The notes beneath the pieces are model-generated. The model made no database searches. It was given only the letters and a program-made list of their open reading frames with translations, and was not told where the DNA came from. Shown in pieces: positions 1 to 29,183 of a stretch of 32,000 nucleotides of DNA. The stretch spans positions 360,001 through 392,000 of the forward strand of contig JAUYHT010000002.1 of assembly GCA_030688545.1 (NCBI GenBank), given 5' to 3'. Numbering within the stretch: position 1 is the first letter of the stretch; each line of letters opens with the position of its first letter. The position numbers and the translations under genes are program-made. This DNA is from Candidatus Iainarchaeum sp. (lineage in GTDB: Archaea; Iainarchaeota; Iainarchaeia; Iainarchaeales; VGJJ01).

Positions 1-3000
1 TCCGACTTCATTAGTGATTTTGTAGATGGCCCGCACCTCTCGGGATCCAAAATCCAGGTCCTTGATATAGAGCTGTCCAAACCCATTGGTATACCCTATT
101 TCGTCCCCGTCTATTTCGACTACGACATTGGCGACCGGGTACCCATTTACGTTTTCGGCGCGTATGAGCAAATCCCCTTTCTCTTGAACCGGACAATTAT
201 CCAGATCAAAGTATCCATAGGCGTGATTTCCGCCCAGAAAAATAGGTTTGGTGGTGGGGGAGGACCCATCCGGGCAGGCGGCGGTTAACGTATAAGAACC
301 ATGTTTCTTGTTGATATCATGCTTTCCTTTCCCATCGGTCTTGCCGGATAGACTATTGTTTAGATAAATAGGGGCATTCCGAATGGGGGAATTGGAGTCC
401 ATCACAATCGCGTGGATTGTGCCTGTCCCAACGAGGTTGCATTGGGGGGCGCCTTCCGAGCAACCCGCTTCGCAATATTGGATGCTACAGGTACAGCCAT
501 TTTCAGGGTCGAAGGAACAACTGTTCAAGCGGTAATCGCCGAGGTAACAGGAGTTGTTGTAGAGGCTGCAGTCGTTCACCAATTCCATTTCCCCTAGATC
601 CAGTTCGCCATAGAACAAGAAACACGCATTGTTCTGCGTGTCCGTGAGGGAGATGCGGGCATCGTTGAGAGTGACATTTAAACGGTAGCGATCGGAGGGG
701 GATTGTAGCAGGAAATCGCCGAAGGAATTGGAAGTGGTATTAGTGATGAGGGTATTGTCGGTGCAGGCCCCCAAATCAAAAGGGAGGCCTGGAGATGGAT
801 TTCCTTGAGGGGTAATGGCTTTCCCTTGCACGACCGTGGTTTCGTGGAACTGCCAGATATTTCCTCCCAAAAAACCCGTCCCGAAGGGAGAGCAATCATT
901 GGGGCCGGTGTCAAACAGCATCTCGCCCCAGGGTACCACCAGCTTCATTTTGTAATTGCTGGCACCGGCGGCGAATACGAATTTTCCATCCGCATCGGTT
1001 ACGGCTGAGGTGACGAGTGAATCAGAACAGGTGGTGAGATTGATGGTGTAATTGGACAAGGGATTGGATAATTCATCTATCAGAAAGGCCTCATAGATGA
1101 AACCGTCCTGGCAAATATTTCCTTGGCACGCGTTGTAGAGACAATTGCTGTTTTGGGTACAGCTGCCCCCTGGATTGGTTTTACATGCTGATGGAATGCT
1201 TCCCCCGGGGGTGGAAATGTATTGCTCGTCGGCCAGGATGCTGCAAGATGTTCCAGATTGGCAGGATATGGGACCGTTCACGGTTTTGATGTCCGAATAG
1301 TTGGGACCAAAAGCCCCCAAAACCCAATACTCGCGCTCCGGTTGGGTCTGGGATTCACAATAATTGAATTTGGGGTTGACCACCCAGTAATCATCCCTTG
1401 GTTCATTGGGGGGACTATTAAGGATGGTGTGTTCAGCCCGTAAACCATCCGAATTATCGCAATCGTAATAGGCCTTCACGCGTGCCTCCCGATGGGATGG
1501 GAAGGCCGTATCGACCACGCATCCGGCGCCCGTGCAGATCTGATCGGGGACATCGACGCCGGTTAAGCATCCAAAATAATCATCCAGGATGCATGAATAC
1601 TTTTTTCCGGCGGACACTGAATTGGGGATACTGAATGAGTTGCAGGAGGTGGAAGCGCATCCCGATCCGCCGCAACCGAGCGGGTCATAATAGCAGGCAT
1701 CAAACACCCCGTCGTTGTTGTAGTCATAGCAGAGCATATCGGTGGATTCGCGCAAATTATAGGTAACGGGCCGGACTTTCGTGGAGGTGAAGGCAACTTG
1801 ATCCAAGTTCGTGCTTGTACCATTACTGGTAGCGGCGTCCCAGGTATCATAATTTAGAATGAAAGGGGAGTAGGAGGCGGGGGCCATACAGTGAGATTGG
1901 GTGGGGGTATCGTAGACGCAATAGCGGGATTGACACTGGGAATCCAGCGCACACAAACTTCCATTGGGAAGGCCGGTGGAACATTGATTGTTGATGCAGG
2001 TGTTGGAATTGCACTGGGCATTTTCCGTGCAATAACTCCCATCCGTCCCATAGGTACAAATTTTGTTGCCGGATGTCCCTTTGCAGTCCACCCCCCCATT
2101 GTCGTTCCAACAATCGGGATTGGTTGTGCAGGCATTGTAAAGATTGTTCTTGCAGATGAGGGAGGTGGTGAACGAGGAGGAAGTGTAGGCGAGGTCGGCG
2201 TCGCAAACCTTTCCGGCTGAGCAGGCTTGGGAAACCCCATCATAATTGGTATGCGAATAGGTCCCCGCGCCCCCGCAGGTGTTCGCATAGATGATCTCAT
2301 CCCCATAAGCGGTGGGGGATTGGTCCTGGTTGCAATGGATATAATAATCTGTCCGAGCGCCCCCGCAGACTCCGGATTGACACTGGCTACTATTGCTGCA
2401 GAGCGCGCCATCTGGGAGGAGCGATTCGCCGAAAACTTTGACGTCATCGACGTAGTATCCCGTGTAGGAATGGATAGAATTATCGGTTTCCATAACCAGA
2501 TTCAAATATATCCTGCCTGAAGTGGAAGTAAACGGATATGATTTCTTTTGCCAATCCGAGTAGGTGTTATCGATGGTATCAATGGTTACCCAGGAGGTTC
2601 CATCGGCTGATAAATTTACACTGAGAAAATCATAGCCTGGCTCTACGTTCCCTTTCAGCCAGAATTCAAAAACAGTATTGGAATAGCCGCTTAGGTTGAT
2701 TGGACCGTAAATCATATACGAATATTGATCATCATCGTAATTGTTCACGATGGTGTTTGCCACTTCCCGTTCCAATTTGACATTATCGACATATGCCCCT
2801 TCATATGTTATCGTGGAATCGCTCACGAAGTGGAATCCGTATTTGAATTGGGATGTCAACAAATTGCTTGGAATGGAACAGGATTTGGTAGTCCAACCAG
2901 GGCTACTACCAGAATATTCACATAAAACATACCATGAATTGCCATTATCCGGGGAAGCAATCACAAGAAGTTTGTCATAGCCGCTTTCCGTTTGATACCA

Positions 3001-4389
3001 GGTAGAAAAAGAGACGCGTGCGTTCAACCAGGAGGAAGCGTTGTAGGTCGTGTTCTTCGTGAAGAAAGCGGCCATGTCATTATCATACCTAAAAAGATAT
3101 CCCGTGCTGCTATTCCCTGCCGAATAGGCGGATCCGGGGCTGGAGGAATACTTGTTGGTCGAATAACCCCAAAAGTCGTACCCACTATTGGGGTTGGCGT
3201 CCCAGGTGGACCAACCCGATATGGAACCGTTAAATAAATCGGTGATAACCGTATTCCATTGGATTCCGATGTCAGATGCCCATGCGCTCCATGAACCAAA
3301 ATGCGATTGGGTGGATGTATCGTCCCAGTAATCCAATCCATTCCCCGAATCAGCATCTCCTACCAACCAGTTTCCGGGGAAGGCGCCTTCGAACGTTTCG
3401 TAGAAAATGGTGGTTGAGCTGAATAGAGCGGTGAGAAGATTAGGAGCGTAAAGGGGTAAAGTTGAGGAAGGAGGGAGGAGGCCCCCCTCTTCATCGCCAG
3501 CCGTCTTGGCAGGATCCGAAGAAGGGTTCGCTCCAGTATTCTGTTTGGGAATTATTTGGCCGTCTATCTCGACTATTTTATCCGGATGATCGATGGGAGG
3601 ACCTGTTTGCGGTCCGATGTGGGGGGTTCCGGTGTCGAAGTCGCCAAGATCTTCACTCGTTTTTGGTTTTATCCTATCCAAAAAGGCGGAGATCAACCGG
3701 CGTAATTCAGGAATATCTTCCGGCCGCACTTCAAATTCTTCCGTGAACGTGGCGATGAAAAAATAATCGCACAAGCCCGTTTGGGGCAACCCGACTACGG
3801 AAGGATCAAAACAGACCTCGGCGGCCAACCCCATCATAGGTTCGGTGGGGGTGCCATTGCCTGAAGGAATCTCATTTTGTATTAATTCATCCTCCTTGGA
3901 TGAACCAATTCCCATATCGGGGGGCGGATCGATTGAAATCGGGCGACCGCCGTGGAATTCTTCCGGAATCACCCCCAGAACTGTTTTGGAAGGATCGATG
4001 CGCCCGTCTTCCTTGTATGCGGTGACTAATTCATATTTCATCCCATCCAAGAAATCGAGGTGCAATAGTTTTTTTTCAACCCAATTGTCCGGAGAACCAA
4101 TGGGATTGGCGTAGGTATTGAGGCCGAAGAGGGTGGACAAAAAATGCCCATCGACCCCGACGAACTCAGCCGGAACTTTTACTGCTTCATCTTCCCTTTT
4201 TGGAATTGACACGTTATAGAATGTGAATGACTTGTTCTCACCGGATGCATTCGTAAATATTCCTGAATACCCATCCAGGAGAACGAAATCATCCGCTTGG
4301 ACCTTATCGATCGAGGGCGAGGCGAGAAAAACGCCCAGAAAGGCAATACCCAGGATGAGAAGAATCCCTATGGAATATTTCCATTTCAT
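1..4389 (-). CDS. Giant secreted/surface protein, partial (C-terminus beyond window edge, at least 1463 aa). It has a signal peptide, two MAM/choice-of-anchor-J-like beta-sandwich modules, Cys-rich knots and carboxypeptidase-regulatory/PEGA-like repeats.
   Basis: Hand translation of the minus strand from the ATG at 4389-4387 (MKWKYSIGILLILGIAFLGVFLASPSIDKVQADD...) runs 1463 codons to position 1 with no stop. It is absent from the ORF track because it has no in-window stop. None of the listed minus-strand ORFs in 1-4389 share its frame. Motifs seen: beta-sandwich endings YVDNVKLERE and YYVDDVKVFG; Cys modules LCSNSSQCQSGVC, YCTENAQCNSNTC, LCALDSQCQSRYC, SCTQNSNCLYNAC; repeats such as GTIHAIVMDSNSPIRNAPIYLNNSLSGKTDGKGKH; many N-x-S/T sequons. 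Confidence 0.8.
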   Translation of the reverse strand, partial: MKWKYSIGILLILGIAFLGVFLASPSIDKVQADDFVLLDGYSGIFTNASGENKSFTFYNVSIPKREDEAVKVPAEFVGVDGHFLSTLFGLNTYANPIGSPDNWVEKKLLHLDFLDGMKYELVTAYKEDGRIDPSKTVLGVIPEEFHGGRPISIDPPPDMGIGSSKEDELIQNEIPSGNGTPTEPMMGLAAEVCFDPSVVGLPQTGLCDYFFIATFTEEFEVRPEDIPELRRLISAFLDRIKPKTSEDLGDFDTGTPHIGPQTGPPIDHPDKIVEIDGQIIPKQNTGANPSSDPAKTAGDEEGGLLPPSSTLPLYAPNLLTALFSSTTIFYETFEGAFPGNWLVGDADSGNGLDYWDDTSTQSHFGSWSAWASDIGIQWNTVITDLFNGSISGWSTWDANPNSGYDFWGYSTNKYSSSPGSAYSAGNSSTGYLFRYDNDMAAFFTKNTTYNASSWLNARVSFSTWYQTESGYDKLLVIASPDNGNSWYVLCEYSGSSPGWTTKSCSIPSNLLTSQFKYGFHFVSDSTITYEGAYVDNVKLEREVANTIVNNYDDDQYSYMIYGPINLSGYSNTVFEFWLKGNVEPGYDFLSVNLSADGTSWVTIDTIDNTYSDWQKKSYPFTSTSGRIYLNLVMETDNSIHSYTGYYVDDVKVFGESLLPDGALCSNSSQCQSGVCGGARTDYYIHCNQDQSPTAYGDEIIYANTCGGAGTYSHTNYDGVSQACSAGKVCDADLAYTSSSFTTSLICKNNLYNACTTNPDCWNDNGGVDCKGTSGNKICTYGTDGSYCTENAQCNSNTCINNQCSTGLPNGSLCALDSQCQSRYCVYDTPTQSHCMAPASYSPFILNYDTWDAATSNGTSTNLDQVAFTSTKVRPVTYNLRESTDMLCYDYNNDGVFDACYYDPLGCGGSGCASTSCNSFSIPNSVSAGKKYSCILDDYFGCLTGVDVPDQICTGAGCVVDTAFPSHREARVKAYYDCDNSDGLRAEHTILNSPPNEPRDDYWVVNPKFNYCESQTQPEREYWVLGAFGPNYSDIKTVNGPISCQSGTSCSILADEQYISTPGGSIPSACKTNPGGSCTQNSNCLYNACQGNICQDGFIYEAFLIDELSNPLSNYTINLTTCSDSLVTSAVTDADGKFVFAAGASNYKMKLVVPWGEMLFDTGPNDCSPFGTGFLGGNIWQFHETTVVQGKAITPQGNPSPGLPFDLGACTDNTLITNTTSNSFGDFLLQSPSDRYRLNVTLNDARISLTDTQNNACFLFYGELDLGEMELVNDCSLYNNSCYLGDYRLNSCSFDPENGCTCSIQYCEAGCSEGAPQCNLVGTGTIHAIVMDSNSPIRNAPIYLNNSLSGKTDGKGKHDINKKHGSYTLTAACPDGSSPTTKPIFLGGNHAYGYFDLDNCPVQEKGDLLIRAENVNGYPVANVVVEIDGDEIGYTNGFGQLYIKDLDFGSREVRAIYKITNEVG

Positions 4390-4422
4390 TAAGCCAACCA
4401 GGTTGCCCAAAGGGTTAAATAC

Positions 4423-9846: not shown

Positions 9847-10037
9847 TATGTGTTCACCTCACTCGTGTATCACCGCATGGATGCGGAAACAGAGGTATTG
9901 GGGGCCTTTTCCCATATAAAGGTTTCAATGGGAAAACGAGTGGAATAAAAGCAATATGACCCAGAAACGGAAAATGGAGGCATTTTCTCAAGAGAAGGGA
10001 TTGGCATCAAAAAGGGAGAGGAAGAAATATTGGGGGT

Positions 10038-10448
10038 ATGCATTATGCCATTCGACCGGATACGCCCATCGCCGGGTTGCCTCATGACCTGCATGCCATC
10101 CATTTAGTACGGGCTATCTCCGCGCGAAAGATGGAAGCCGTGCTAAAGCACTGCCCGCATCTCGAAGAGATACGTGTATCCCCTTCCGTGCGGAAGCGGT
10201 TGTCCCCTCGAGTGAATACATTGCTTACAAAACACGCCATTAGGATTGGGGGTGGAGCTAAAGCGGGCCGAGCGCTGGGGATCAACCTCGCGACCGTGCA
10301 AGCCATCGCCGATCTGAAGAAGGATTTCCTCTCGGTGCGCGCCATCAGCGCCAAAGTGGGGGTGCCCAAGAGCACGGTGCATTATCTCCTGAAAAAAGCC
10401 AAACGCGAGAAGATAAGGAATGGGCGGCATGTAATCCACGTGGCGTGA
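10038..10448 (+). CDS. Small protein with a C-terminal resolvase-type helix-turn-helix
   Basis: 136 aa; SVRAISAKVGVPKSTVHYLLKKAKRE is a typical HTH. The N-terminal half is uncharacterised. Confidence 0.5.
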   Translation: MHYAIRPDTPIAGLPHDLHAIHLVRAISARKMEAVLKHCPHLEEIRVSPSVRKRLSPRVNTLLTKHAIRIGGGAKAGRALGINLATVQAIADLKKDFLSVRAISAKVGVPKSTVHYLLKKAKREKIRNGRHVIHVA

Positions 10449-10558
10449 ATGATGATCATTGGAAGAGAACCAAAAAAAATTATTTTCCGGAATTTAATAT
10501 CAATCGTTTCTTGACTCAAGCACCCCATCTTTTGGAAAACCTAATTTCCAAAACTGGG

Positions 10559-10762
10559 TTCGTTTTTTTGATCAAACTTTTTTATCTAGAGGAGGTTTTT
10601 TGATCAAACTTTTTTTCCAAAAAAGTTTGTTTTGATGAAACTTTTTATCAAATATGTTCGTTTTTTGATCAAACTTTTTCTTAAAAAGTTTGTTTTGATG
10701 AAACTTTTTCTTAAAAAAAGATTCGTTTTTTTGATCAAACTTTTTTTCCAAAAAAGTTTGTT
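10559..10762. repeat. Tandem array of nested AT-rich palindromes (4 copies of TTTGATCAAA, each followed by AAACTTTTT arms; 3 perfect 10-11-bp hairpins)
   Basis: TGATCA occurs at 10569, 10601, 10666 and 10732. The hairpin CAAAC-T(5-7)-loop-A(5-6)-GTTTG occurs at 10605-10629, 10670-10692 and 10736-10760. The variant GTTTTGATGAAACTTTTT occurs at 10628-10646 and 10691-10709. The last three units are spaced at 63-66 nt (65 and 66 nt between successive TGATCA cores). The array lies between convergent gene ends. Confidence 0.85.
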
Positions 10763-11785
10763 TTAGTGCAAGCGGATGTGGGCGTGTTTGCCTTGCGCGC
10801 GGATGCGCATGAGGAGTTGTTTGGTGAAGAGGTCGATGAGCGTCTCTTCCGTCATGTAGGCAGGGATGTTGAGCTGCGCCGCGCGTGCATGCCCCCCCGC
10901 GTCACCATCGTGCTGTTGGGCGAAAGGGAGGATGATGTCGAGGATGTCAAGATCCAGGTCGTGGTGGAGTTTTTCGGAGACGCGGATGGAGCAGAGGATG
11001 TGGTGTGGGTCTCGCGCGTAGCCCACGGCGAGATCGGCGCCTAATTGGATGAAGGAGGAGGCAGCGAAAGCGGTGTGATAGGGGGCATGAATGAAAGCGA
11101 GGAGGTAGTCGCCCACTGTAAAAATCTTGGCGGCGCGAGCGGCCTTGAACAAGGCCAATCGATTGCCAGTAGGAGGTGGGGGGAATGCAAGGAGGAGGAG
11201 CTCTTCATATGTTTTCGGGCTCTTTTGCAGGAGGAAATCAAAGGTTTCAAAAGTATGCGGGTTGGCCACGGCGAAGCGCGCGGAATCCGCTAGGATGGCG
11301 GTGGCGAGGAGGGTGGCGAGAGTGGAGGGAAAGGACGCTTTCATGGCGCGGCCGATGCGCGTGACCATCTGGGCGGTGGCGATGGAATGCGGTCGGATAA
11401 TGGGAATGGTTTTACGGGAGAACGAATGGAGAGCGGTGGAATGGTGGTCGATGAGGATAAGGGTTTTGGGATAGGTTGAGAGCGCGTGGGAAAGAGACCC
11501 TCCTTGTTGGGGGGAGCGGAAGTCCACGCACACAACGGCATCATAGGAGGCGAGGGAGGAGATGGTTTTGGGTTTGATTTGGAATGGTTGGAGGAGCGCG
11601 CTCACGGTGTTCAGAGGATCGGGAATGCCAAATGTGGTTTTGGAATAGGGAGCAAAAAAGAGGGAGAGAGCGTAAGCGGACGCGAGAGTGTCTAAATCAG
11701 GACGCGTGTGGGCGAGGAAGAGGACCTTCTTTCCCGTGAGCAGGGTTTTGAGGCGCTTGGCATCCGCGGCGCGGGGAACTCCCAT
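10763..11785 (-). CDS. DHH/DHHA1-family phosphoesterase (NrnA/RecJ-like)
   Basis: Motifs HTRPDLDTLAS, VCVDF, LIDHHS and the C-terminal DAGGHARAAQ (DHHA1 GGGH-type). ATG 11785 lies 1 nt after the prefoldin stop. The track start at 11827 would overlap prefoldin by 41 nt. Confidence 0.8.
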   Translation of the reverse strand: MGVPRAADAKRLKTLLTGKKVLFLAHTRPDLDTLASAYALSLFFAPYSKTTFGIPDPLNTVSALLQPFQIKPKTISSLASYDAVVCVDFRSPQQGGSLSHALSTYPKTLILIDHHSTALHSFSRKTIPIIRPHSIATAQMVTRIGRAMKASFPSTLATLLATAILADSARFAVANPHTFETFDFLLQKSPKTYEELLLLAFPPPPTGNRLALFKAARAAKIFTVGDYLLAFIHAPYHTAFAASSFIQLGADLAVGYARDPHHILCSIRVSEKLHHDLDLDILDIILPFAQQHDGDAGGHARAAQLNIPAYMTEETLIDLFTKQLLMRIRAQGKHAHIRLH

Positions 11786-16601: not shown

Positions 16602-16658
16602 TCCGGGAAAATAATTCCTCGGAATGGTTTCCAATGGGGGATGGGTGAATGGGTATAT

Positions 16659-16693
16659 CGTTAATATCTTTTTGATTCGTTATATCTTTTTGA
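16659..16693 (-). promoter_or_regulatory. Duplicated TATA-like element (minus strand TCAAAAAGATATAACG / TCAAAAAGATATTAACG) upstream of the SBDS gene
   Basis: Two tandem near-identical 16-17-nt units lie at 16659-16675 and 16678-16693, in the 71-nt psmA-SBDS gap. Confidence 0.35.
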
Positions 16694-21468: not shown

Positions 21469-23082
21469 TCATTTCCGAGCATGGGGGAAATGATGGTGTT
21501 TCTTGTGATCCTCTTCAGATTCTGACCCATCCACGGACGAAGAATGGTTGTTCTCTTCTTTTGGAGAAGCCGAAGAATCTTTCTTTTCGGGGGCGGGAAT
21601 GGTGGGAAGTGGAGTTGAGGCGTTCCCGGATGATTTGGAATGGATCAACTGGTTGATGAGAGCGGATAGTTGAGCCGCCGCGTCATCCATTTGCTTCACC
21701 CGCTTGTCCATTTCCACCAGTTTTTGGTCCACACGGGATTCGAGGGAACTGGTGGATTTCTTGAACGCCGTTAACGTATCCTCGCGCTCCATATTGGCCT
21801 TGCGGAGAGAAGCGATGAACTGCTTCTGGAACATGTCCAGAGATTGCATGCGGGTGTCGGCCTCCATGAGCTTCTGACCTAATTCCTTCTTGGAGGCATT
21901 GAATTCATCCATTTGGGTCTTTACATGGACATCAAAATCAGCTGTCTTCTGGTGAATGAGGGTGTCCATTTTGGTATTCACGATCTTGTCAATACCATTG
22001 ATCTTCTCATCCACGTCTTCTAAACGCGTAGCGAGTTCATCGTCGAAATGGGCCTTGGCGGCATCCAATTGATGGGTTAAATCGGCGAACTCCTTAAGCA
22101 CCTCCTGGACATCACGCGAGGCCAAGTCGGCACCCAATTTCTTGAGTTGAATAATCTCATCCTGCATGTCATCCCGCAAGTCCTTCACGCGCGCTTCTAG
22201 TATTTGGTTGGCCTGTTGCTGGAGCTGGTCCGCGAGGCCGGAGGTTATTTTCTGCTCCAATTCTAAAGTATGCGTGGCGCGTGTTTCGACATCGCGGAGT
22301 TTTTCTTCGGTGGAGGAAACCAAATCATTGACCCTGGACTCGATGTCGTCCAGTTTGGTGTTGACATCATCCAAAATGGATCGGCGCAGGGAATCCAACC
22401 CCTCCACTTTTGTGGAGAAATCCGCCACCAAATCCTGCAAAATCATCCGCTGACCCTTGATGCGCTGTAAGTCTTCTTGCGTGGCGAGATTTAAGGTCTT
22501 GATCTCCTCGATCTTCTGGGTGAGCATCCCATCCATGTCGCGGGATTTGGCGTTGAGTTGGCCCTCGATGCGCATGCTCATGAGATCACGCTGGCTTTCA
22601 AAGAGGGTTTCCATTTTCTTCTCGAGGGCTTTTACATGCTGTTGAATGCGGGCCTCCATGGCATCATCGATGGACTTTTCCAATTGCTCCATTTTGACGA
22701 GCTTGGAATTCACCGTGTCGAGGATTCCTTTCTCCCAGAGATCGACGTTGGACTTGAAGGAAGGCGGGGTGGGAAGGGTAAGCGTGGAAGTATGGGCGGA
22801 AGGCGCACGCATCGTGCCTCGATGGGGAGGTGATGAAGGTTGGGATGACGCATGAGGTGAGGAATGGGCGGGGAGAGATGCATCCGATGAAATGGGTTTT
22901 TCCTTGGATTCATGCGAGTGGGCTGCTGTTTCCATTTGCTCCCGGTGGGCGTCGCGGTATACTTCTTCCGCCTGGTGGTGGGTTAGGCCCATGGCCTGGA
23001 GCTCCTTCACTAATTCATCCCGCTCCAAACCCATGCGGACGAGCTTCCGGACCGATTCGAGGATAGCGGGGCTGTAGGGCAT
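21469..23082 (-). CDS. Long coiled-coil / helical-repeat protein with a small UBA-like N-terminal domain and a His-rich C-terminus
   Basis: From ATG 23082 the protein reads MPYSPAILESVRKLVRMGLERDELVKELQAMGLTHHQAEEVYRDA. A Ser/Pro/His-rich linker follows, then about 400 aa of amphipathic helix repeats (for example LDDVNTKLDDIESRVNDLVSSTEEKLRDVE). The protein ends in HKKHHHFPHARK. The track start at 23193 is a TTG. Confidence 0.7.
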   Translation of the reverse strand: MPYSPAILESVRKLVRMGLERDELVKELQAMGLTHHQAEEVYRDAHREQMETAAHSHESKEKPISSDASLPAHSSPHASSQPSSPPHRGTMRAPSAHTSTLTLPTPPSFKSNVDLWEKGILDTVNSKLVKMEQLEKSIDDAMEARIQQHVKALEKKMETLFESQRDLMSMRIEGQLNAKSRDMDGMLTQKIEEIKTLNLATQEDLQRIKGQRMILQDLVADFSTKVEGLDSLRRSILDDVNTKLDDIESRVNDLVSSTEEKLRDVETRATHTLELEQKITSGLADQLQQQANQILEARVKDLRDDMQDEIIQLKKLGADLASRDVQEVLKEFADLTHQLDAAKAHFDDELATRLEDVDEKINGIDKIVNTKMDTLIHQKTADFDVHVKTQMDEFNASKKELGQKLMEADTRMQSLDMFQKQFIASLRKANMEREDTLTAFKKSTSSLESRVDQKLVEMDKRVKQMDDAAAQLSALINQLIHSKSSGNASTPLPTIPAPEKKDSSASPKEENNHSSSVDGSESEEDHKKHHHFPHARK

Positions 23083-23204
23083 GCTTGGAAAAGGGTTTTT
23101 GCCGAATAAAAAGTAGTCCTTTCCCAGGGAGGGGATGGGGCGTTTTATAAAACGATGGCGGGAGGATTTTGATATCGGAAAAGTCCCTTTCAACCGAATC
23201 GGCT

Positions 23205-23237
23205 TTTTTGATCAAACTTTTTTTCTAAAAAAGTTTG
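23205..23237. repeat. Dispersed fifth copy of the TTTGATCAAA + CAAAC-T7/A6-GTTTG palindromic element
   Basis: TTTTTTGATCAAACTTTTTTTCTAAAAAAGTTTG differs by one loop base from the copies at 10595-10629 and 10726-10760. Its last G is G1 of tRNA-Ala. Confidence 0.8.
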
Positions 23238-23308
23238 GGCGCTTGGCGCAATGGTAGCGCGCTTCCATGGCATGGAAGAGGTTGGGGGTTCAAGTCCCCC
23301 AGCGTCCA
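23237..23308 (+). tRNA. tRNA-Ala: tRNA-Ala, anticodon GGC
   Basis: Hand-folded cloverleaf. The acceptor stem is GGGCGCT/AGCGTCC and includes the G3:U70 alanine identity pair. The anticodon stem is CTTCC/GGAAG with loop ATGGCAT. The T arm is GGGGG-TTCAAGT-CCCCC. The discriminator is A. Confidence 0.9.
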
Positions 23309-23385
23309 TCGCGGTTTTCGACTACGATACCCATTTGAAGGGAAAAAGGGCCAACGGTTAATAAGTTGGGGTAAATGGACTCATT

Positions 23386-24126
23386 ATGGCAACATTGACC
23401 AACAGTTTTTTTGACATCAACAAGCTGCCAGCCGAAGAAGGCATTTTAGTTTTCCCCATTTCAATGAGTCGAATTTCCAACATACAAGACGCAAAACATT
23501 GTTGGGATTATTTATTGATATTCAGTCCAGAAAAAATAATCAAACCATTGGTAGGATTAAATTTTTTCTATTGCGACTACCTCTATTTTTCATCCGATGA
23601 AAAGGCATCAACACTAAAAAAGAAATTTAGTCAATTGATTGTAAATCACAAAAATGAATTTCTCAATATTATTCGCAAAAATCCATTTTATATTGAAAAG
23701 GCTGTCTCTTTTACGACTTGGAATCAGATATATCTGGACTGCAAAGATTTTACCAGATTTTTTGGAGAGCTCAAAAGGTTATATCAGTCGGACGAGAAGT
23801 TGAGGGGATACATGAAAGAAGATGCGGCACGGGCGAAGAAAAAGTTGACTCTAAATCAAATTGACTTCTTCCTGGAGGAGATTTTATTTTCTTATCTGGT
23901 GACGAAAGGGGAGGTTACACTCCACAATGAATTTATTCAGAATCACCACAAGTGGATTTTATATTGTTATCCAGGTAAACCATTGAAAGCTCAGATTTAT
24001 ATTTTTCAGAAAAACCCATTCAAACGGTATAATCCCAACAATAAGTTTGATGATGCATACTATGATTTGGCCGACAAAAAACTATACAACCTTGCAAAAA
24101 TTGACCTCAAAACATTTGATCTATAA
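23386..24126 (+). CDS. Hypothetical protein in the AT-rich island, with a weak colinear resemblance (judged by eye) to tRNA-dependent cyclodipeptide synthases
   Basis: 246-aa ORF with AT-rich codon usage. Segments of interest: ILVFPISMSRISN, KAVSFTTWNQIY...ELKRLYQSDEKLRGYMKEDA, LNQIDFFLEEILFSY and WILYCYPGKP. See the corresponding finding. Confidence 0.55.
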   Translation: MATLTNSFFDINKLPAEEGILVFPISMSRISNIQDAKHCWDYLLIFSPEKIIKPLVGLNFFYCDYLYFSSDEKASTLKKKFSQLIVNHKNEFLNIIRKNPFYIEKAVSFTTWNQIYLDCKDFTRFFGELKRLYQSDEKLRGYMKEDAARAKKKLTLNQIDFFLEEILFSYLVTKGEVTLHNEFIQNHHKWILYCYPGKPLKAQIYIFQKNPFKRYNPNNKFDDAYYDLADKKLYNLAKIDLKTFDL

Positions 24127-24218
24127 CCCGACTATACCATATTTTTAGAATGCTTCAATGTGAATCATAATCGATACATATTTAAATCATTTATGGGGTT
24201 ATTGGTTTAGGTGACTGT

Positions 24219-24461
24219 ATGAATGTGATTTTGAGGGGAAAAACGAAACAAATCGCGGAAGCCATGGTGGAAGAAGGCTATGCCAATTCCCAATCGGAAG
24301 CCATACGGTTAGCATTGGTTGATTTTGGGCAACACCATTTCGGGGAAGTAGAGTTAGTTAATCGGAAACTAGATCGCATTGACGAGGAAATCAAATCTGG
24401 GAAACGAAAGCTGCTGAACGCGGATGAGGCATTGGGAAACTATTCCAAAAATGCCAAGTGA
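24219..24461 (+). CDS. Ribbon-helix-helix (CopG/ParD-like) small DNA-binding protein
   Basis: MNVILRGKTKQIAEAMVEEGYANSQSEAIRLALVDF fits a beta-strand plus two-helix RHH pattern. AGGTGA lies 5 nt upstream of the ATG. Confidence 0.6.
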   Translation: MNVILRGKTKQIAEAMVEEGYANSQSEAIRLALVDFGQHHFGEVELVNRKLDRIDEEIKSGKRKLLNADEALGNYSKNAK

Positions 24462-24485
24462 TGCTCCAATCCCCTCATCCCGTTT

Positions 24486-24529
24486 CTATAAGTTTACTAT
24501 AAATTACTATAACTTATAGTAACTTATAG
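24486..24529. repeat. Inverted repeat CTATAAGTT/AACTTATAG plus a tandem duplicate TAACTTATAG x2
   Basis: The arms lie at 24486-24494 and 24511-24519, with a second direct copy at 24521-24529. The cluster lies between convergent gene ends (24461 and 24531). Confidence 0.6.
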
Positions 24530-24530
24530 T

Positions 24531-25916
24531 TCATTTGGTTTCAATAATGAGAGTATAGTAGGCCCCTCGATATTTGCCGTTTTTTCTTATTTTTCCTTGC
24601 TTGATAAGCTCATTAAGATCGGCGGTTGCCGTCGGTTGTGATACCCCCGTCATTTTTCGATAGTCGGCCGTCTTAAGAATAGGGTTCTTTTGGAGGTATT
24701 GCAGGGCCTGTTTTTGTCTTTTGTTTAATCCATCCACTTCTTTTCGTGGTTTTTTGCTGGAGTGATTATAGAAAATAACTTGGAATTGATTTCCGATTTC
24801 GTAGAATTCTGGATCTGGTAAGCGGGCTTGGCGAAACTGCTTGCGGATGAGGCGAACCCCCAATCCAAGACCTTCTCCTAATTTTAGTTCATGCAAAAGC
24901 CGGTAAACAATCGGGTTACGATGAACTGGGGTTCGATCAAAATTGTTAATATTTTGTCCCGGCATGAGCCCGCCTGGATTCGTAATCTGTAATCGGTCTT
25001 CGTAAATCTCGATTAGAGCTTCTTTGGTTTCGAAATAATCACGATGGCCGATTGCGTTGGTAATGACTTCGCGAAGAGATTGCTCTGGATAATCCAATAT
25101 TTCCTCTCTCTTAGCTCCCACAAGCGTTAAGTGTTTCCCAACATTTTCTTTCACGATTCGATAGGTTTGTTCGATAAGCTCGGGAATCGTTCCCTGAACT
25201 TTTTTATCGTGAACAATAGAACTGAGATCAGATTCCATTCCCATATATTTGACAATTCGTACTTCTAAATTTGAAAAGAACCGATTGGGATCCTTGGCGA
25301 AAAACAGCAGTGCAGCATTCTTAAGAAAAAATTCCCCATTATAGTTGGCTACATTTATTCCAGCTAAGACTGGCTTTAGCTCGTCTTCCTTTTTTGGATT
25401 GATCTTTACCCCTCTAATCTTCAATAGTTTTCCAACTTTTTCCAGATCCAGACTGTCCATATTCGCCTTGCTTCGGGATTCTTCAAAGTTCATTAGCGCA
25501 CGCTTTTTGAGAAAGTCCATCAACTCTTCCCCCGCAAGCGAAAGATTGGTGGTTCCCTGCCGGACGTAACATATCTTCTTGAAAAAACAGGGATTATGGG
25601 AGAGTGGAAAAGCCTCTATTTTTAGCACGATAAACGTTTTTCCCTCATGGCGAACAAACTCTTGCTCAGGCCGAGGATCCGGACGACATTGTTCCAACGT
25701 GGCACGAATGATTTGAGACGAAACATCGGGGTTATTGACTCCAACAGGTGTTTTTTCCTTCGGATCGACGCCGATAACGATTAGCCCACCGAAAGAATTC
25801 GCAAATGCTGCAACGGTCTTCCCCAGACTAACTTCGGACGCATTGGACTTAAATTCTAATGCGGGACTTTCCCAATCTTCAATCCAACGAAGAAGGTCAC
25901 TGTACGAGTAGGACAT
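24531..25916 (-). CDS. AlbA_2 (Schlafen-like) + HATPase_c_4 + winged-helix protein (the family usually annotated as RecG-like / putative transcriptional regulator)
   Basis: N-terminal segment ESPALEFKSNAS...GKTVAAFANSFGGLIVIGVD. Central segment REVITNAIGHRDYFETKEALIEIYEDRLQITNPGGL. C-terminal wHTH LNKRQKQALQYLQKNPILKTADYRKMTGVSQPTATADLNELIKQGKI. The first ATG is at 25916; the track start at 25937 is a TTG. Confidence 0.8.
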   Translation of the reverse strand: MSYSYSDLLRWIEDWESPALEFKSNASEVSLGKTVAAFANSFGGLIVIGVDPKEKTPVGVNNPDVSSQIIRATLEQCRPDPRPEQEFVRHEGKTFIVLKIEAFPLSHNPCFFKKICYVRQGTTNLSLAGEELMDFLKKRALMNFEESRSKANMDSLDLEKVGKLLKIRGVKINPKKEDELKPVLAGINVANYNGEFFLKNAALLFFAKDPNRFFSNLEVRIVKYMGMESDLSSIVHDKKVQGTIPELIEQTYRIVKENVGKHLTLVGAKREEILDYPEQSLREVITNAIGHRDYFETKEALIEIYEDRLQITNPGGLMPGQNINNFDRTPVHRNPIVYRLLHELKLGEGLGLGVRLIRKQFRQARLPDPEFYEIGNQFQVIFYNHSSKKPRKEVDGLNKRQKQALQYLQKNPILKTADYRKMTGVSQPTATADLNELIKQGKIRKNGKYRGAYYTLIIETK

Positions 25917-26050
25917 GTAGGGAGACCATATGTTCAAAAATTAAAAGCCTATGCAAAAATTACGAGCTCATTTTATCAGATTCACGAGGCATAGCTGCGG
26001 CATGAAGCCTGTGAGTAGGGTAAATCAGAATAAACCCCCCGGCGTCCAAT

Positions 26051-26455
26051 TTACTCGAAAATAAGTATGTATAGCGATACAATAAATAAAAATAATCCGC
26101 CAAAAAAAGTGAATACTTCAAAGGGTCTATGAAATGAGTAAAGTAAAAGGGCAACGCTTAAAGAAATAATCCCAGCCAAAACAAATTCTTGATGAAGCTC
26201 TAAATCAGGAACCCCCCGAATTCTTTTCACAGCTCCGATAAATACTATCAGAATAATCTGAACAATTGAGGACAATAAAATGCTAATCAAAATGATAATT
26301 TCAGTCGAATATTGGGCAAAAAAAGTACTAATACTATAACCCGCATTCGCATATAAAATGAACAGACCTATACCAAGAATGTTCCAGATATAGAAAGGAA
26401 CCGCTTCAACTTTTTTTGAAACGGCCTCTAACACAGTTGATGCATCAGACATCAT
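26051..26455 (-). CDS. Small integral membrane protein (about 4 TM helices), function unknown
   Basis: 134 aa with four hydrophobic stretches (for example FYIWNILGIGLFILYANAGY and IIILISILLSSIVQIILIVFIGAV). It starts 4 nt after the Sm gene stop. Confidence 0.55.
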   Translation of the reverse strand: MMSDASTVLEAVSKKVEAVPFYIWNILGIGLFILYANAGYSISTFFAQYSTEIIILISILLSSIVQIILIVFIGAVKRIRGVPDLELHQEFVLAGIISLSVALLLYSFHRPFEVFTFFGGLFLFIVSLYILIFE

Positions 26456-26459
26456 TATC

Positions 26460-26690
26460 TCACGGCGAAATCAATAGAATGTTATCCCCGCGCAGGACGA
26501 CCTTTCCGTATTTTGTTTTTGGGTTTCCGTTCTCCAGGCTCTCGGCGTTCTCGAGCACAATATTCATGTGGACGTCGAAGGCTTTTAGGACACCACGGAA
26601 TTGAAGATTGCCCTTGAGCTCAACTAACACGTTTTTACCGATGCTCTCGTTCAGCAGGTCGAAGGGTCTGGATGGGGTTTGATTGGCCAT
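26460..26690 (-). CDS. Sm-like archaeal protein (SmAP/LSm)
   Basis: From ATG 26690 (GGAGG lies 8 nt upstream) the protein reads MANQTPSRPFDLLNESIGKNVLVELKGNLQFRGVLKAFDVHMNIVLENAE...VVLRGDNILLISP, which contains the Sm1 and Sm2 motifs. The track start at 26780 has no such support. Confidence 0.85.
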   Translation of the reverse strand: MANQTPSRPFDLLNESIGKNVLVELKGNLQFRGVLKAFDVHMNIVLENAESLENGNPKTKYGKVVLRGDNILLISP

Positions 26691-26797
26691 GGTACTATTC
26701 CTCCAAGAAAAGAATGGTTGATAGGAGACTGGATGACCAAAACTACTTAAATAAACACCCATGGGGGGGATTTTCACCACTATTTCAATGACTTCCT

Positions 26798-26896
26798 CCC
26801 CACCCTAAAGGGTGGGGTATCCAACAAATAGAAAACGCCACCTGCGCGCGAGATCGCTCGCCAAACAATGGGCGACGAATGGCGCCCTAAAGGGCG
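26798..26896 (-). other. Cluster of GC-rich stem-loops in the 261-nt untranslated gap upstream of the Sm gene (candidate structured leader or small RNA)
   Basis: CCCCACCC-TAAA-GGGTGGGG lies at 26798-26817. CGCCC-TAAA-GGGCG lies at 26883-26896. GCGAG-ATCG-CTCGC lies at 26848-26861. A closing pair CGCCA (26836-26840) / TGGCG (26880-26884) is also possible. Confidence 0.3.
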
Positions 26897-26951: not shown

Positions 26952-29183
26952 CTATACTTTCATCTCTTCCACGCCACTGCCCTTCTTTCCCCCGAAGAGA
27001 CGGGAGAAGAAAGAGGCGATGGATGCCAGAATCCCTTGGCGTGGGGTAGGATGGGAGTCCCCGTGAATGGGTAAACCCGCGAGTCGGGCAGCGAGCTTCT
27101 GAACTTCAATGCATGATTTGGCCTGGGGGTTGCGGAGGATGACGGGCACCACTTTATCCTTGATGAAGGAGTGACGCATCTCCACATCATACGGGATGAC
27201 CGCGTAAACCGGGAGCTCGAGCATGCGAGAGACTTCATCTTTGGAAATTTCCCCCTTCTCGAAATGCACCATGTTGAGGACAATGCCAAGGGGCTTGCTG
27301 CCCAGGCGCTGGGCGACAATCTTGGTTTTCAAAACGTCCGCGATGGATGGGGAATCGGGAGTCGCGATGAGCAAACATTCATCCGTGGCCGCGATGGACG
27401 CCAGAACGGATTTCTCGATGCCAGCGGGGCCGTCGAGGATAACAAAATCGTATTTATGCTGGATGGACTTGATGATGGAGGAAAGCCTGTCCGCGTCGAC
27501 GCGGCGATAGTTCTCAAGAGATAATCCAGAAGGAATAAGTTTCAGGCCGGCCGGACCATCGTACAACGCATCCTGCACCCCCGCTTCCCCGAGGAGGACA
27601 TCATGCAGAGTGATGGGAGAGGACTGCATCCCCAGCAACAAGGAAAGGTTGGCCATGGCGATATCCGCGTCAACCAAACAAACGGAGACTCCGCGCTGGG
27701 CGAGCGCGATGCCCAAGTTGGCGGCGATGGAGGTATTGGAACATAGGATTCCCGTGGCATGGGCGAAATGCCCGCCATAATCCGTTATCTGGAAATCATA
27801 CACATAGGGATGATCGTAGGGAATTCGTTTTACCTCTTCCACGCGGCGAAATTCAACATTATCATTCAGCATTTGCTCCAGCCAGGACAGGAGGGGGTGC
27901 TGAACCATCAAACGACGATACACTTCCAAATACCGTCGGACAGCCCCTTTGGAAAGGGCATAATATTCCCACTCGTATTCGTACACCATCTGCTTGGTGC
28001 AACCCAATTCCTTTCCGATCTGTAGACCCGTGTACCCGGCATCCATGCGAATTTGCTTTAGGAGTTTTCCCACAGGGTACACATCAATATTCGTGTTCTC
28101 AACCGCTGGACTCTGAAGCTGATCAAGGAGGCGGAATGCTTTCCTTTTTCCCGTGAATCCAATGTAATCCGAATATCGTTGGGCATTAGCCCCTGTAATG
28201 TAAATACGCCAATAGGGTTGTTTGGAGGCCATTCTCCCATTGGTGGCCATTTTATAGGTCAATTTTATCTGGGAAGAGATTCCGAAACGCGTGCGCAAAA
28301 TCGAGGCCACCTGGAATGCCAATTTCTTCGATTTGGTATCCAGTTCGATTTCCCGTCGATTGATGTTCACCGTCCCATCCGTATCAAAAAGACCCCTTAG
28401 GAAGGCGGCAATGGATGGGTTTTGGGAATGGAATAGAGCGGTTGGCACCTCCTTCTCCCCGGCCAAGGCTATTTTTACCCCATACTTCATGAAAAGATCG
28501 CGAATGGTTTTCTTTTTGTACTGGCTGAAAACATGCAGCCCACGATCCATATTTTCATGGATTTCCCCAAAAACATCTTTGTATGCGTTCCGAATGTTAT
28601 CCGCCAAGTCTCCGGGCTCGGCACAGATGGAAATACGGTTCGCCTCCATATGCCCATCCCCGATAACGTATCCCAACCACGTAGCAATAGGGATAGGAAC
28701 ACCCTCAGCATTCTCCTGATCATAAACGCCCTTGTGCAACACCAAATAATCTTTCGCTGGGATAATCGCGTCGGCCCGGATTTTCTGCAAACGACCAGAC
28801 CGCATCACAATGAAATGGTGTTCGGGCGTGACGGAAACACTCCCTGCCGCACAGGAAACGGTGAGCAACTCCTTGGGAGCTGGCTTACGCATCAAATGAA
28901 CGGGTTTATCCTGGAAATGCACGACCTTCTGGTTCTCCTCCGAAAACAAAAAAGCGTGAAGCTGCAAATCGCCTGGCGAATCGAGGACCTCAAACACTTC
29001 TTCCAAACCATCAACAGTTTTCACGATGGCTTTCTTCACGGCTAATGGGTTCTGGGCGATGAGGGAATCGATGTACGGGCCGATTTGAATGATATCCCCA
29101 TTCGCCAATGAGATGAACTCATCCTTATGAAGGCTCTTCCCCACGCCGCCCTTCCCCGAAACAATAGTGATACTGCGACCCAT
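26952..29183 (-). CDS. minD: MinD-type P-loop ATPase interrupted by an intein (743-aa precursor; predicted spliced product 276 aa)
   Basis: The N-extein is MGRSITIVSGKGGVGK. The C-extein is TSIAANLGIALAQRGVSVCLVDADIAMANL...FVILDGPAGIEKS...FFSRLFGGKKG. Joining them restores the deviant Walker A motif GKGGVGKTS. The DGPAGIE Walker B motif and a C-terminal amphipathic helix are present. Confidence 0.9.
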   Translation of the reverse strand: MGRSITIVSGKGGVGKSLHKDEFISLANGDIIQIGPYIDSLIAQNPLAVKKAIVKTVDGLEEVFEVLDSPGDLQLHAFLFSEENQKVVHFQDKPVHLMRKPAPKELLTVSCAAGSVSVTPEHHFIVMRSGRLQKIRADAIIPAKDYLVLHKGVYDQENAEGVPIPIATWLGYVIGDGHMEANRISICAEPGDLADNIRNAYKDVFGEIHENMDRGLHVFSQYKKKTIRDLFMKYGVKIALAGEKEVPTALFHSQNPSIAAFLRGLFDTDGTVNINRREIELDTKSKKLAFQVASILRTRFGISSQIKLTYKMATNGRMASKQPYWRIYITGANAQRYSDYIGFTGKRKAFRLLDQLQSPAVENTNIDVYPVGKLLKQIRMDAGYTGLQIGKELGCTKQMVYEYEWEYYALSKGAVRRYLEVYRRLMVQHPLLSWLEQMLNDNVEFRRVEEVKRIPYDHPYVYDFQITDYGGHFAHATGILCSNTSIAANLGIALAQRGVSVCLVDADIAMANLSLLLGMQSSPITLHDVLLGEAGVQDALYDGPAGLKLIPSGLSLENYRRVDADRLSSIIKSIQHKYDFVILDGPAGIEKSVLASIAATDECLLIATPDSPSIADVLKTKIVAQRLGSKPLGIVLNMVHFEKGEISKDEVSRMLELPVYAVIPYDVEMRHSFIKDKVVPVILRNPQAKSCIEVQKLAARLAGLPIHGDSHPTPRQGILASIASFFSRLFGGKKGSGVEEMKV
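27735..29135 (-). mobile_element. Intein with LAGLIDADG homing endonuclease (467 aa) inserted in the MinD Walker A loop
   Basis: Block A is SLHKDEFISLANGD (Ser1). Block B is VTPEHHF. The LAGLIDADG motifs are WLGYVIGDGH and FLRGLFDTDGTV. An HTH-like segment LQIGKELGCTKQMVYEYE is present. Blocks F/G read VYDFQITDYGGHFAHATGILCSN followed by Thr at +1. Confidence 0.85.

Follow-up and report, generated by a model that had tools for sequence, protein, structure and literature searches.

In the 32,000-nt stretch of Candidatus Iainarchaeum sp. DNA analysed here (the window), the spacer between two convergent genes, one encoding a DUF1699/HTH protein and the other a DHH phosphoesterase, carries an array that is probably a local tandem amplification of a dispersed, non-coding, REP-like palindromic repeat tagged with TTGAT. 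The array lies inside a lineage-specific insertion and, through its oligo-T runs, probably terminates transcription in both directions. In archaea, REP-type repeats and their enzymes have barely been described, in contrast to the extensive work on them in Proteobacteria. The window holds two loci of the repeat, with seven units in 32 kb; these units and the genes beside them are the following.

10038-10448, + strand: DUF1699_N/HTH protein gene, 136 aa, converging on the array (Pfam matches; end-to-end alignment with the Iainarchaeum orthologue, 53% identity)
10449-10529, no strand assigned: non-repeated left portion of the lineage-specific spacer (missing in relatives; no match in the family loci)
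10530-10553, + strand: flanking hairpin TTTTGGAAA-ACCTAA-TTTCCAAAA, 5' of unit 1 (from the sequence; paired in both fold predictions)
10563-10593, + strand: unit 1, T7-GAT tag and 5' arm CAAACTTTTTT without an adjacent 3' arm (half unit)
10596-10629, + strand: unit 2, T6-GAT tag and perfect 11-bp hairpin (10605-10629)
10630-10660, + strand: unit 3, T4-GATG variant with a degenerate 3' arm
10661-10692, + strand: unit 4, T6-GAT tag and perfect 10-bp hairpin (10670-10692)
10693-10725, + strand: unit 5, T4-GATG variant with a degenerate 3' arm
10726-10760, + strand: unit 6, T7-GAT tag and perfect 11-bp hairpin (10736-10760), 2 nt from the DHH stop codon
10763-11827, - strand: DHH/DHHA1 phosphoesterase gene, last gene of the exosome superoperon; stop codon TAA at 10763-10765
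23204-23237, + strand: isolated seventh copy, T6-GAT tag and hairpin (23213-23237), whose last G (G23237) is nucleotide 1 of tRNA-Ala(GGC)
23237-23310, + strand: tRNA-Ala(GGC), directly abutted by the seventh copy (ARAGORN; Rfam tRNA, 65.7 bits)

Structure of the tandem array

Positions 10563-10760 consist of six units of ~32 nt each (31-35 nt), all in the same orientation and joined head to tail, four of them containing TTGATCAAACTTTTT and two containing TTGATGAAACTTTTT. The complete units (2, 4 and 6) begin with T6-7 and GAT and continue into a perfect hairpin, C-AAAC-T5-7 / A5-6-GTTT-G. In its general form the unit has a tag, (G/T)TTTTTGAT, followed directly by a 10-11 bp A/T hairpin, N-AAAC-T5-7 / A5-7-GTTT-N'; the stems in the window contain one or two G-C pairs. 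Written as a single strand, the junction of tag and hairpin reads TTTTTGAT and then CAAACTTTTTTTCCAAAAAAGTTTG. Tandem Repeats Finder (TRF) reports a period of 32 nt (5.9 copies) and a super-period of 63 nt (2.6 copies, 85% matches), so that the array can be described as a pair of one GATC unit and one GATG unit repeated ~2.6 times. The units abut and leave no unique spacers, and a CRISPR array was rejected on this ground.

The recurrence of the unit far exceeds chance. The 15-mer TTGATCAAACTTTTT, with two or fewer mismatches, has seven matches in the window against 0.17 expected, a number reached by none of 100 shuffled sequences, and CAAACTTTTT has nine against 0.16 expected. Predicted folding of the array is stronger than that of shuffled sequences on both strands (z = -5.6 and -5.0).

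The original prediction described this region as a set of nested palindromes, and that description as a whole is confirmed. The 10-bp palindrome TTTGATCAAA occurs four times (10567, 10599, 10664 and 10730), two variants GATGAAACTTTTT lie at 10632 and 10695, and the three perfect hairpins have the coordinates and stem lengths given above for units 2, 4 and 6. The spacing of 63-66 nt corresponds to the double unit. The array also sits where it was placed, downstream of the end of the HTH gene at 10448, with its last hairpin ending 2 nt before the DHH stop codon, and a further GATC-containing palindrome, ATGATCAT, is present at 10452-10459. Pairing of each GATC unit with the arm that follows holds for three of the four, the exception being unit 1, which is a half unit. 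The seventh copy, beside tRNA-Ala, was not among the coordinates given.

A lineage-specific insertion

The window is archaeal: an exosome superoperon runs on the - strand from ~19.2 kb to 10.8 kb in the order L15e, Rpp14/Pop5, proteasome alpha, SBDS, Rrp4, Rrp41, Rrp42, L37ae, Pcc1, prefoldin beta and DHH phosphoesterase. The nearest homologues of the DHH protein, at 50% identity or less, come from Iainarchaeota/Diapherotrites, and the host is an Iainarchaeota-like DPANN archaeon. The database entry for this protein has 340 aa, implying a start at 11785, and the open reading frame as read has 354 aa.

Two syntenic relatives were found, Ca. Iainarchaeum CP064981.1 and one Logan contig. In both, the DHH and DUF1699/HTH genes are convergent with stop codons only 12 bp apart, as against a spacer of 314 bp in the window; the 12-bp spacer contains no T-runs, and the motif does not occur within 21 kb in either relative. 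Since the DHH and HTH proteins of the window align with their orthologues to the last residue, the 314-bp spacer is a lineage-specific insertion or expansion. By this comparison it is dispensable to both genes. No target-site duplication is visible at the borders of the units or of the array, and no pair of empty and filled sites was found.

The spacer is neither a conserved operator nor a conserved origin, and this bears directly on two roles that had been suggested for the array, a binding array for the adjacent HTH protein and a replication or segregation site. Repeated dyad-symmetric sites beside an HTH gene are what an operator for the DUF1699/HTH protein might look like, and a ParA-family gene elsewhere in the window could hint at partition. 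Yet the HTH gene is kept beside DHH in relatives that have no array, the array lies downstream rather than upstream of the HTH gene, and the motif is found beside unrelated genes in many phyla, with several copies per genome. As to an origin, cumulative GC skew climbs monotonically across this region without a turn, no Orc1/Cdc6 gene or domain was found among the scanned ORFs of the window, and the units have no ORB-like consensus; a multi-copy motif that is absent from syntenic relatives is also not what is expected of such a site. Neither proposal is supported, and we regard an operator, origin or partition site here as highly improbable.

Dispersal in the source organism

An identical DHH protein is found in three independent short-read assemblies, and in all three the contig ends 0-28 nt from its stop codon. 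A 12.5-kb Logan contig of the same organism, assembled at k=31, runs from a point within the tRNA-side copy to a point within unit 6; two other assemblies of the organism end 3 nt or less from the DHH stop codon. Breaks inside copies are the behaviour expected of a dispersed repeat. The two window copies have 22 consecutive bases in common at the break points, which is too few to account for a break at the tRNA copy when k=31, and we infer that at least one further near-identical copy exists elsewhere in the genome. A search of metagenome contigs with the lineage-specific pattern TTCG-T6/7-GATS... gave four matches, all unrelated, and no further copies from the source species. Units of this kind break short-read DPANN assemblies (3 of 3 here) and may be mistaken for regulatory sites or origins.

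A family of tagged hairpins

Scanning 185,579 species genomes for the pattern TTGATSAAACTTTTT-N0-9-AAAAAGTTT yielded at least 120 loci, against 0.08-18 expected from composition. Among the matches listed, the archaeal carriers include Methanosarcina, other Methanosarcinales, termite-gut Methanobacteriaceae, Methanophagales, one Thaumarchaeote, and members of the Micr-, Woese-, Nano-, Iain-, Aenigm-, Nanohal-, Undin- and Marsarchaeota; bacterial carriers among the same matches are Oscillospiraceae/Acutalibacter/Ruminococcus, Cloacimonadota and Desulfobacterales. A single genome, that of Methanosarcina sp. MSH10X1, has at least nine loci. Plasmid collections gave only matches of 29 nt, in Bacillus plasmids, IMG/VR gave eight scattered matches, and phage collections gave none.

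Two features that the search pattern did not impose define what is conserved. In the 129 distinct copies among the matches listed, the positions -1, -2 and -3 before TTGAT are T in 129, 127 and 119 cases, respectively, and the closing pair of the hairpin, formed by the base after GAT and the base after GTTT, is C-G in 91, G-C in 32 and mismatched in 6. Extra copies at these loci close with A-T or T-A, and compensations within the stem (AACC/GGTT and GAAC/GTTC) are also seen among them; loops vary freely between 2 and 9 nt. The conserved object is therefore the T5-GAT tag together with a hairpin maintained as a structure, and not the 10-bp palindrome TTTGATCAAA or GATC, on both of which the original prediction had placed its emphasis. 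GATC is no hallmark of the family, in which it alternates with GATG, GATA and GATT while the opposite end of the hairpin changes its base in concert. In the window GATC is neither enriched nor avoided (123 sites, 124 expected).

Copies in other lineages are frequently preceded by a 5' flanking hairpin, which leaves the single-stranded tag between two hairpins. In copies of the Woesearchaeota type, pairings between loop and tail covary (CAAC/GTTG, TAAC/GTTA and CAAGG/CCTTG). The units in the window have neither the flanking GC hairpins nor the pseudoknot seen in these other lineages.

No earlier description of the tag-hairpin family was found, although repeats of the REP-like kind are themselves known. 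Searching the literature for the string TTGATCAAAC returned primers only, and searches on DPANN tRNA introns, Methanosarcina repeats and MITEs, and mobile tRNA introns gave no account of the motif. The new aspects are the tag, the A/T stem, the head-to-tail clusters, the archaeal and cross-domain range and the occupation of tRNA introns.

Genomic positions of the copies

All copies are intergenic. Of those among the matches listed, 83 had callable genes on both sides and could be classified, with 33 in convergent, 43 in co-directional and 7 in divergent spacers, and 92% of the 83 touch the 3' end of a gene. Co-directional copies show no preference of orientation (19 vs 24). The neighbouring genes are unrelated: the 147 flanking ORFs match 203 Pfam families, none of which is common to more than three ORFs.

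Contact with tRNA genes is made by 16 of 138 copies, at three exact positions. The last G of the unit is nucleotide 1 of the tRNA in the window and at loci L031, L051 and L062; the copy follows directly on the tRNA 3' end at L005, L101 and L112; and at L004, L021, L053, L055, L091, L097 and L104 a reverse copy begins at the canonical 37/38 splice site of an intron-containing tRNA. The hosts of the intron-borne copies are Micrarchaeota, Woesearchaeota and relatives. That canonical tRNA introns of Micrarchaeota and their relatives have such a unit as their hairpin bears on the origin of archaeal tRNA introns. A search of the window around its low-GC island gave no att-type duplication of tRNA-Ala. 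In several methanogens, a forward copy is located 0-4 nt upstream of a Shine-Dalgarno sequence and ATG (L037, with two copies, L039, L084 and L011). Such copies are also compatible with a promoter or 5'-leader role.

This exact placement at tRNA 5' ends, at 3' ends and at the 37/38 intron site, taken with the covariation of the hairpins, the invariant single-stranded tag between hairpins in many lineages, the covarying loop-to-tail pairings of the Woesearchaeota-type copies and the strong predicted folding, would also be expected if the units reflected a fold with its own function, either of an RNA or of single-stranded DNA. An Sm-site-like U5-GA would then lie between hairpins, in some lineages with a small pseudoknot, and the unit would serve as an Lsm/Hfq-type platform or as a processing signal at tRNA/mRNA boundaries. 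A DNA-level hairpin, however, predicts covariation in a perfect palindrome equally well; wobble pairs favour one folding strand only weakly (9 vs 4), and co-directional spacers show no orientation bias with respect to transcription (19 vs 24). The elements outside the tag and hairpin on which this account draws, flanking GC hairpins and pseudoknot, are those missing from the window units, and no Rfam family matches. We consider a functional fold of this kind improbable.

In the window, Rfam 15 at the gathering score returned only the two tRNAs; at the array, nothing with E<=10 came near a gathering score, and seven other loci gave no match at the motif. Three known RNA classes were judged on the sequence and rejected: a hammerhead has no helix II available between GAUGA and GAAA, a C/D-box RNA has no CUGA boxes, and an H/ACA RNA has neither a pocket nor an ACA box.

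Possible roles in transcription termination and initiation

In archaea, termination efficiency and the binding of aCPSF1 increase with the number of U4 tracts (PMC8716108). Runs of four or more T number 14 on the + strand of the spacer and 7 on its - strand, and a T6 is located 7 nt after the DHH stop codon. With U-tracts on both strands, the array is expected to act as a bidirectional stop: the U5-7 tracts on both strands of each unit would halt archaeal RNA polymerase arriving from either gene, assisted by aCPSF1. For the window alone the significance is modest, the insertion being dispensable and probably insulating the two convergent genes from each other.

The stacked bidirectional terminator suggested in the original prediction is thus plausible as an effect of the T-runs on both strands, but not as a terminator of the bacterial hairpin/U-tail type. 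A search for bacterial-type intrinsic terminators between 9800 and 11200 gave no sites, and a sigma-70 promoter was likewise not found there. Against a terminator role stand the relatives, whose spacer of 12 bp is free of T-runs, and the copy at 23204-23237, where a strong forward stop should block an essential tRNA-Ala unless the unit itself supplies a start. This copy argues against a simple strong terminator. The single canonical TATA box upstream of tRNA-Ala is at 23145-23154, and the seventh copy lies between the box and the tRNA, with runs of T6 and T7 in the interval; this leaves two options, leaky T-runs or a start that the unit itself provides at its last G.

The array resembles ordinary archaeal oligo-U terminators in having at least two tracts of U4 or longer within ~20-30 nt after the stop codon on both strands (PMC8716108). 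It differs in that ordinary terminators of this type are not 33-nt palindromes conserved across phyla and domains. In addition, the orthologous gene ends in relatives are without such tracts, and one copy precedes a tRNA.

The second option leads to the main alternative to a REP-like repeat, in which the unit would be a punctuation module selected by the host, a portable one that terminates transcription arriving from either side and provides a forward start at its last G, with the T-run and GAT as a weak TATA-like element ~26-33 nt upstream; the array would then be a reinforced stop. The coincidence of the last G with tRNA nucleotide 1 at four loci, the copies 0-4 nt before a Shine-Dalgarno sequence and ATG, the enrichment of copies at gene 3' ends and the dependence of archaeal termination on U-tracts (PMC8716108) are all in keeping with such a module, and the T6 and T7 runs between the TATA box and tRNA-Ala imply a start downstream of them. 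However, TTTTTTGA poorly matches the canonical boxes found elsewhere in the window. These are TTTTATAAAA at 23145, TTTATATG at about 9914-9921, which is complementary to CATATAAA, and a box AAAGATAT(T)AA that precedes the SBDS gene in duplicate. Six tandem units are directed into the 3' end of DHH, where there is nothing to promote, and reverse copies in tRNA introns would fire antisense. Moreover, the orthologous spacers of relatives do without the module, and its core also occurs in bacteria, whose transcription machinery differs. A punctuation module selected as such by the host seems unlikely.

Relation to known repeats

Among the roles suggested in the original prediction, whose interpretation as a whole is partly supported, a REP/MITE-like element is the one that the data favour: as a tagged palindrome, the unit recurs outside genes in multiple dispersed copies, and the spacer that contains it is missing in syntenic relatives. 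Like REP and BIME sequences, it is an extragenic palindrome of ~33 nt (tag and hairpin together 32-35 nt) with a single-stranded 5' tag, a concept developed for tagged REPs (PMC3733652). Its stem is conserved in structure through compensatory changes, its dispersed copies are enriched at gene 3' ends and in convergent spacers and form local clusters, and it may have side effects on termination or mRNA stability. There are also differences. The bacterial tag is GTAG or CGTC, whereas here it is (G/T)TTTTTGAT, that is, T5-GAT; the REP stem is G+C-rich and the present stem is A/T; and BIME copies alternate in orientation, while all six units of the array (6/6) run head to tail. REPs are mobilised by RAYT Y1 transposases, and no RAYT-like gene was found in the window, the flanking ORFs or ~1 Mb of family loci. 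Finally, the hosts here are archaea (DPANN, methanogens and Thaumarchaeota) and some anaerobic bacteria, and tRNA introns are occupied as well.

A second parallel is provided by the ISDra2/CdISt1 group of the IS200/IS605 family and its miniature derivatives (PATEs). These elements insert 3' of TTGAT and have a subterminal hairpin at the left end, and their Y1 HUH transposase recognises them in single-stranded form (PMC2806898, PMC4227781). TTGAT is also the target-adjacent motif of TnpB (PMC8612924). In the present family TTGAT stands directly 5' of every hairpin, the same pentanucleotide as in ISDra2 (PMC2806898). Unlike IS200/IS605 elements, however, the unit begins its hairpin at the very next base, leaving no room for the spacing between guide and cleavage site; it has a single hairpin instead of distinct left and right ends; the T-run before GAT is itself conserved; and no tnpA or tnpB was found in ~1 Mb of family loci.

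Archaeal MITEs have been reported at high densities in Methanosarcina spelaei and a Woesearchaeon (PMC11602168), and the present units resemble them as small, non-coding intergenic repeats in the same taxa. The unit of 32 nt is shorter than the 50-500 bp of MITEs, though, and its arms are parted by a loop of 2-9 nt alone, with no internal segment; target-site duplications, too, are not detectable here. An integron attC site was considered separately and rejected: the hairpin is too short and too perfect, and there is no cassette spacing.

Proposed spread and amplification of the unit

The data presented above have led us to a model in two steps, the most likely one in our judgement, whereby an enzyme that recognises a hairpin and its tag would have spread the unit and the array would then have grown locally by slippage. 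Mobility is inferred from the dispersal of the copies and from the likeness to known elements, in which such recognition is the work of enzymes of the HUH/Y1 kind, as for REP/RAYT or the TTGAT-targeting members of IS200/IS605. No gene for a transposase, a Y1/HUH enzyme or TnpB was found in the window, and no transposase was present among the 25 most-matched Pfam families of the 147 flanking ORFs. The failure of tblastn with IS200 and IS608 TnpA queries to find a related gene in the ~1 Mb of family loci is a weak negative.

It may be, and we put this forward tentatively, that T5-GAT hairpins as a class are cross-domain miniature mobile elements, an archaeal counterpart of REPs, moved as single-stranded DNA by an HUH/Y1-type enzyme among methanogens, DPANN archaea and anaerobic Firmicutes/Desulfobacterales. 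They would survive where termination or the processing of RNA renders them innocuous, namely at gene 3' ends, in tRNA leaders and trailers and, as the intron hairpin, at 37/38 tRNA splice sites, and would have been co-opted as a portable module for termination and start-site selection. That a 33-nt tagged hairpin is present, near letter for letter, in Methanosarcina and Methanobacteriaceae, in Thaumarchaeota and no fewer than eight DPANN lineages, and in several anaerobic bacteria as well would suggest either an unrecognised broad-host-range mobilisation system or a common nucleic-acid-handling step.

The second step of the model, growth of the array, would have occurred by slipped-strand or unequal exchange. 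Every AAAAAGTTTG arm can pair with either the preceding or the following arm, and arms with alternative partners provide a geometry favourable to slipped-strand expansion; the double unit of 63-66 nt, present 2.6 times, is consistent with such a history. Other tandem arrays occur in the family, namely five perfect 83-bp units at locus L019 of Methanosarcina and units of 120 bp that follow a stop codon at L024.

Extended forms of the T5-GAT hairpin element

The T5-GAT hairpin element, a T-run with a GAT tag followed by an A/T hairpin, is embedded in several larger structures among the loci of the genome scan (L numbers). One is a composite element of ~100 nt, found 22–38 nt downstream of the stop codons of unrelated genes, in which a GC hairpin, frequently with a C-GAA-G loop, is followed in order by T5-GAT, the A/T hairpin, a small hairpin and a tail. 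The tail pairs with the loop of the small hairpin preceding it, and this pairing covaries as CAAC/GTTG, TAAC/GTTA and CAAGG/CCTTG; judged from this covariation, the small hairpin and tail together look like an H-type pseudoknot. The composite element has no counterpart in Rfam. The bacterial form, ~70 nt in length, consists of AAAAGTTTTTGATCAAACTTTTTTCAAAAAGTTTG and then a G+C-rich hairpin. It is present in several copies in each genome among the matches listed, is common in convergent-gene spacers and occurs in both orientations.

Forms and settings of the element by locus, among the matches listed
L036, L041, L042, L067, L072, L081, L094, L099, L102, L106, L117, L118: composite element, ~100 nt
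L001, L008, L033, L043, L065, L073 and other loci: bacterial version, ~70 nt, Oscillospiraceae/Clostridia
L009, L010, L057: bacterial version, ~70 nt, Cloacimonadota
L004, L021, L053, L055, L091, L097, L104; also L027, L083: copies in tRNA introns, reverse orientation
L019, 3920–4278: five perfect 83-bp tandem units, Methanosarcina sp. MSH10X1
L024, 1470–1775: 120-bp units immediately 3' of a stop codon, Methanosarcina sp. MSH10X1

Both the 83-bp and the 120-bp Methanosarcina units carry the motif together with additional T-rich hairpins in each. Genomes of Micrarchaeota, Woesearchaeota and related DPANN archaea have reverse-oriented copies of the element within predicted tRNA introns, where the canonical 37/38 splice site is the exact start of its hairpin. 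Here the element possibly provides the bulge-helix-bulge with its intronic helix.

Surroundings of tRNA-Ala and other features of the window

The spacer upstream of tRNA-Ala is divergent, separating it from a 537-aa gene that starts at 23082 on the − strand, and the TATA-like box that it holds could serve both directions. Directly 3' of tRNA-Ala begins a low-GC island, possibly an integrated element, which contains the Schlafen gene as well as ORFs lacking Pfam matches; an att-like repeat of tRNA-Ala was sought for this island and not found.

23145–23154: TATA-like box TTTTATAAAA, a perfect palindrome
23311–26800: low-GC island, GC ~0.40 versus ~0.53
24531–25937: Schlafen/AlbA_2 + HATPase_c_4 + winged-HTH gene, inside the island
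26952–29183 (−): ParA/MinD-family P-loop ATPase gene split by an intein that carries a LAGLIDADG homing-endonuclease domain
1–4422 (−): open reading frame spanning ≥1474 codons, continuing beyond the window start
16658–16693: 18-nt tandem duplication, TCGTTAATATCTTTTTGAT / TCGTTATATCTTTTTGAG, upstream of the SBDS-exosome genes

The initial stretch of the 1–4422 frame is hydrophobic and signal-peptide-like. On the − strand, the 18-nt duplication corresponds to a pair of AAAGATAT(T)AA boxes and probably represents a duplicated TATA/BRE region.
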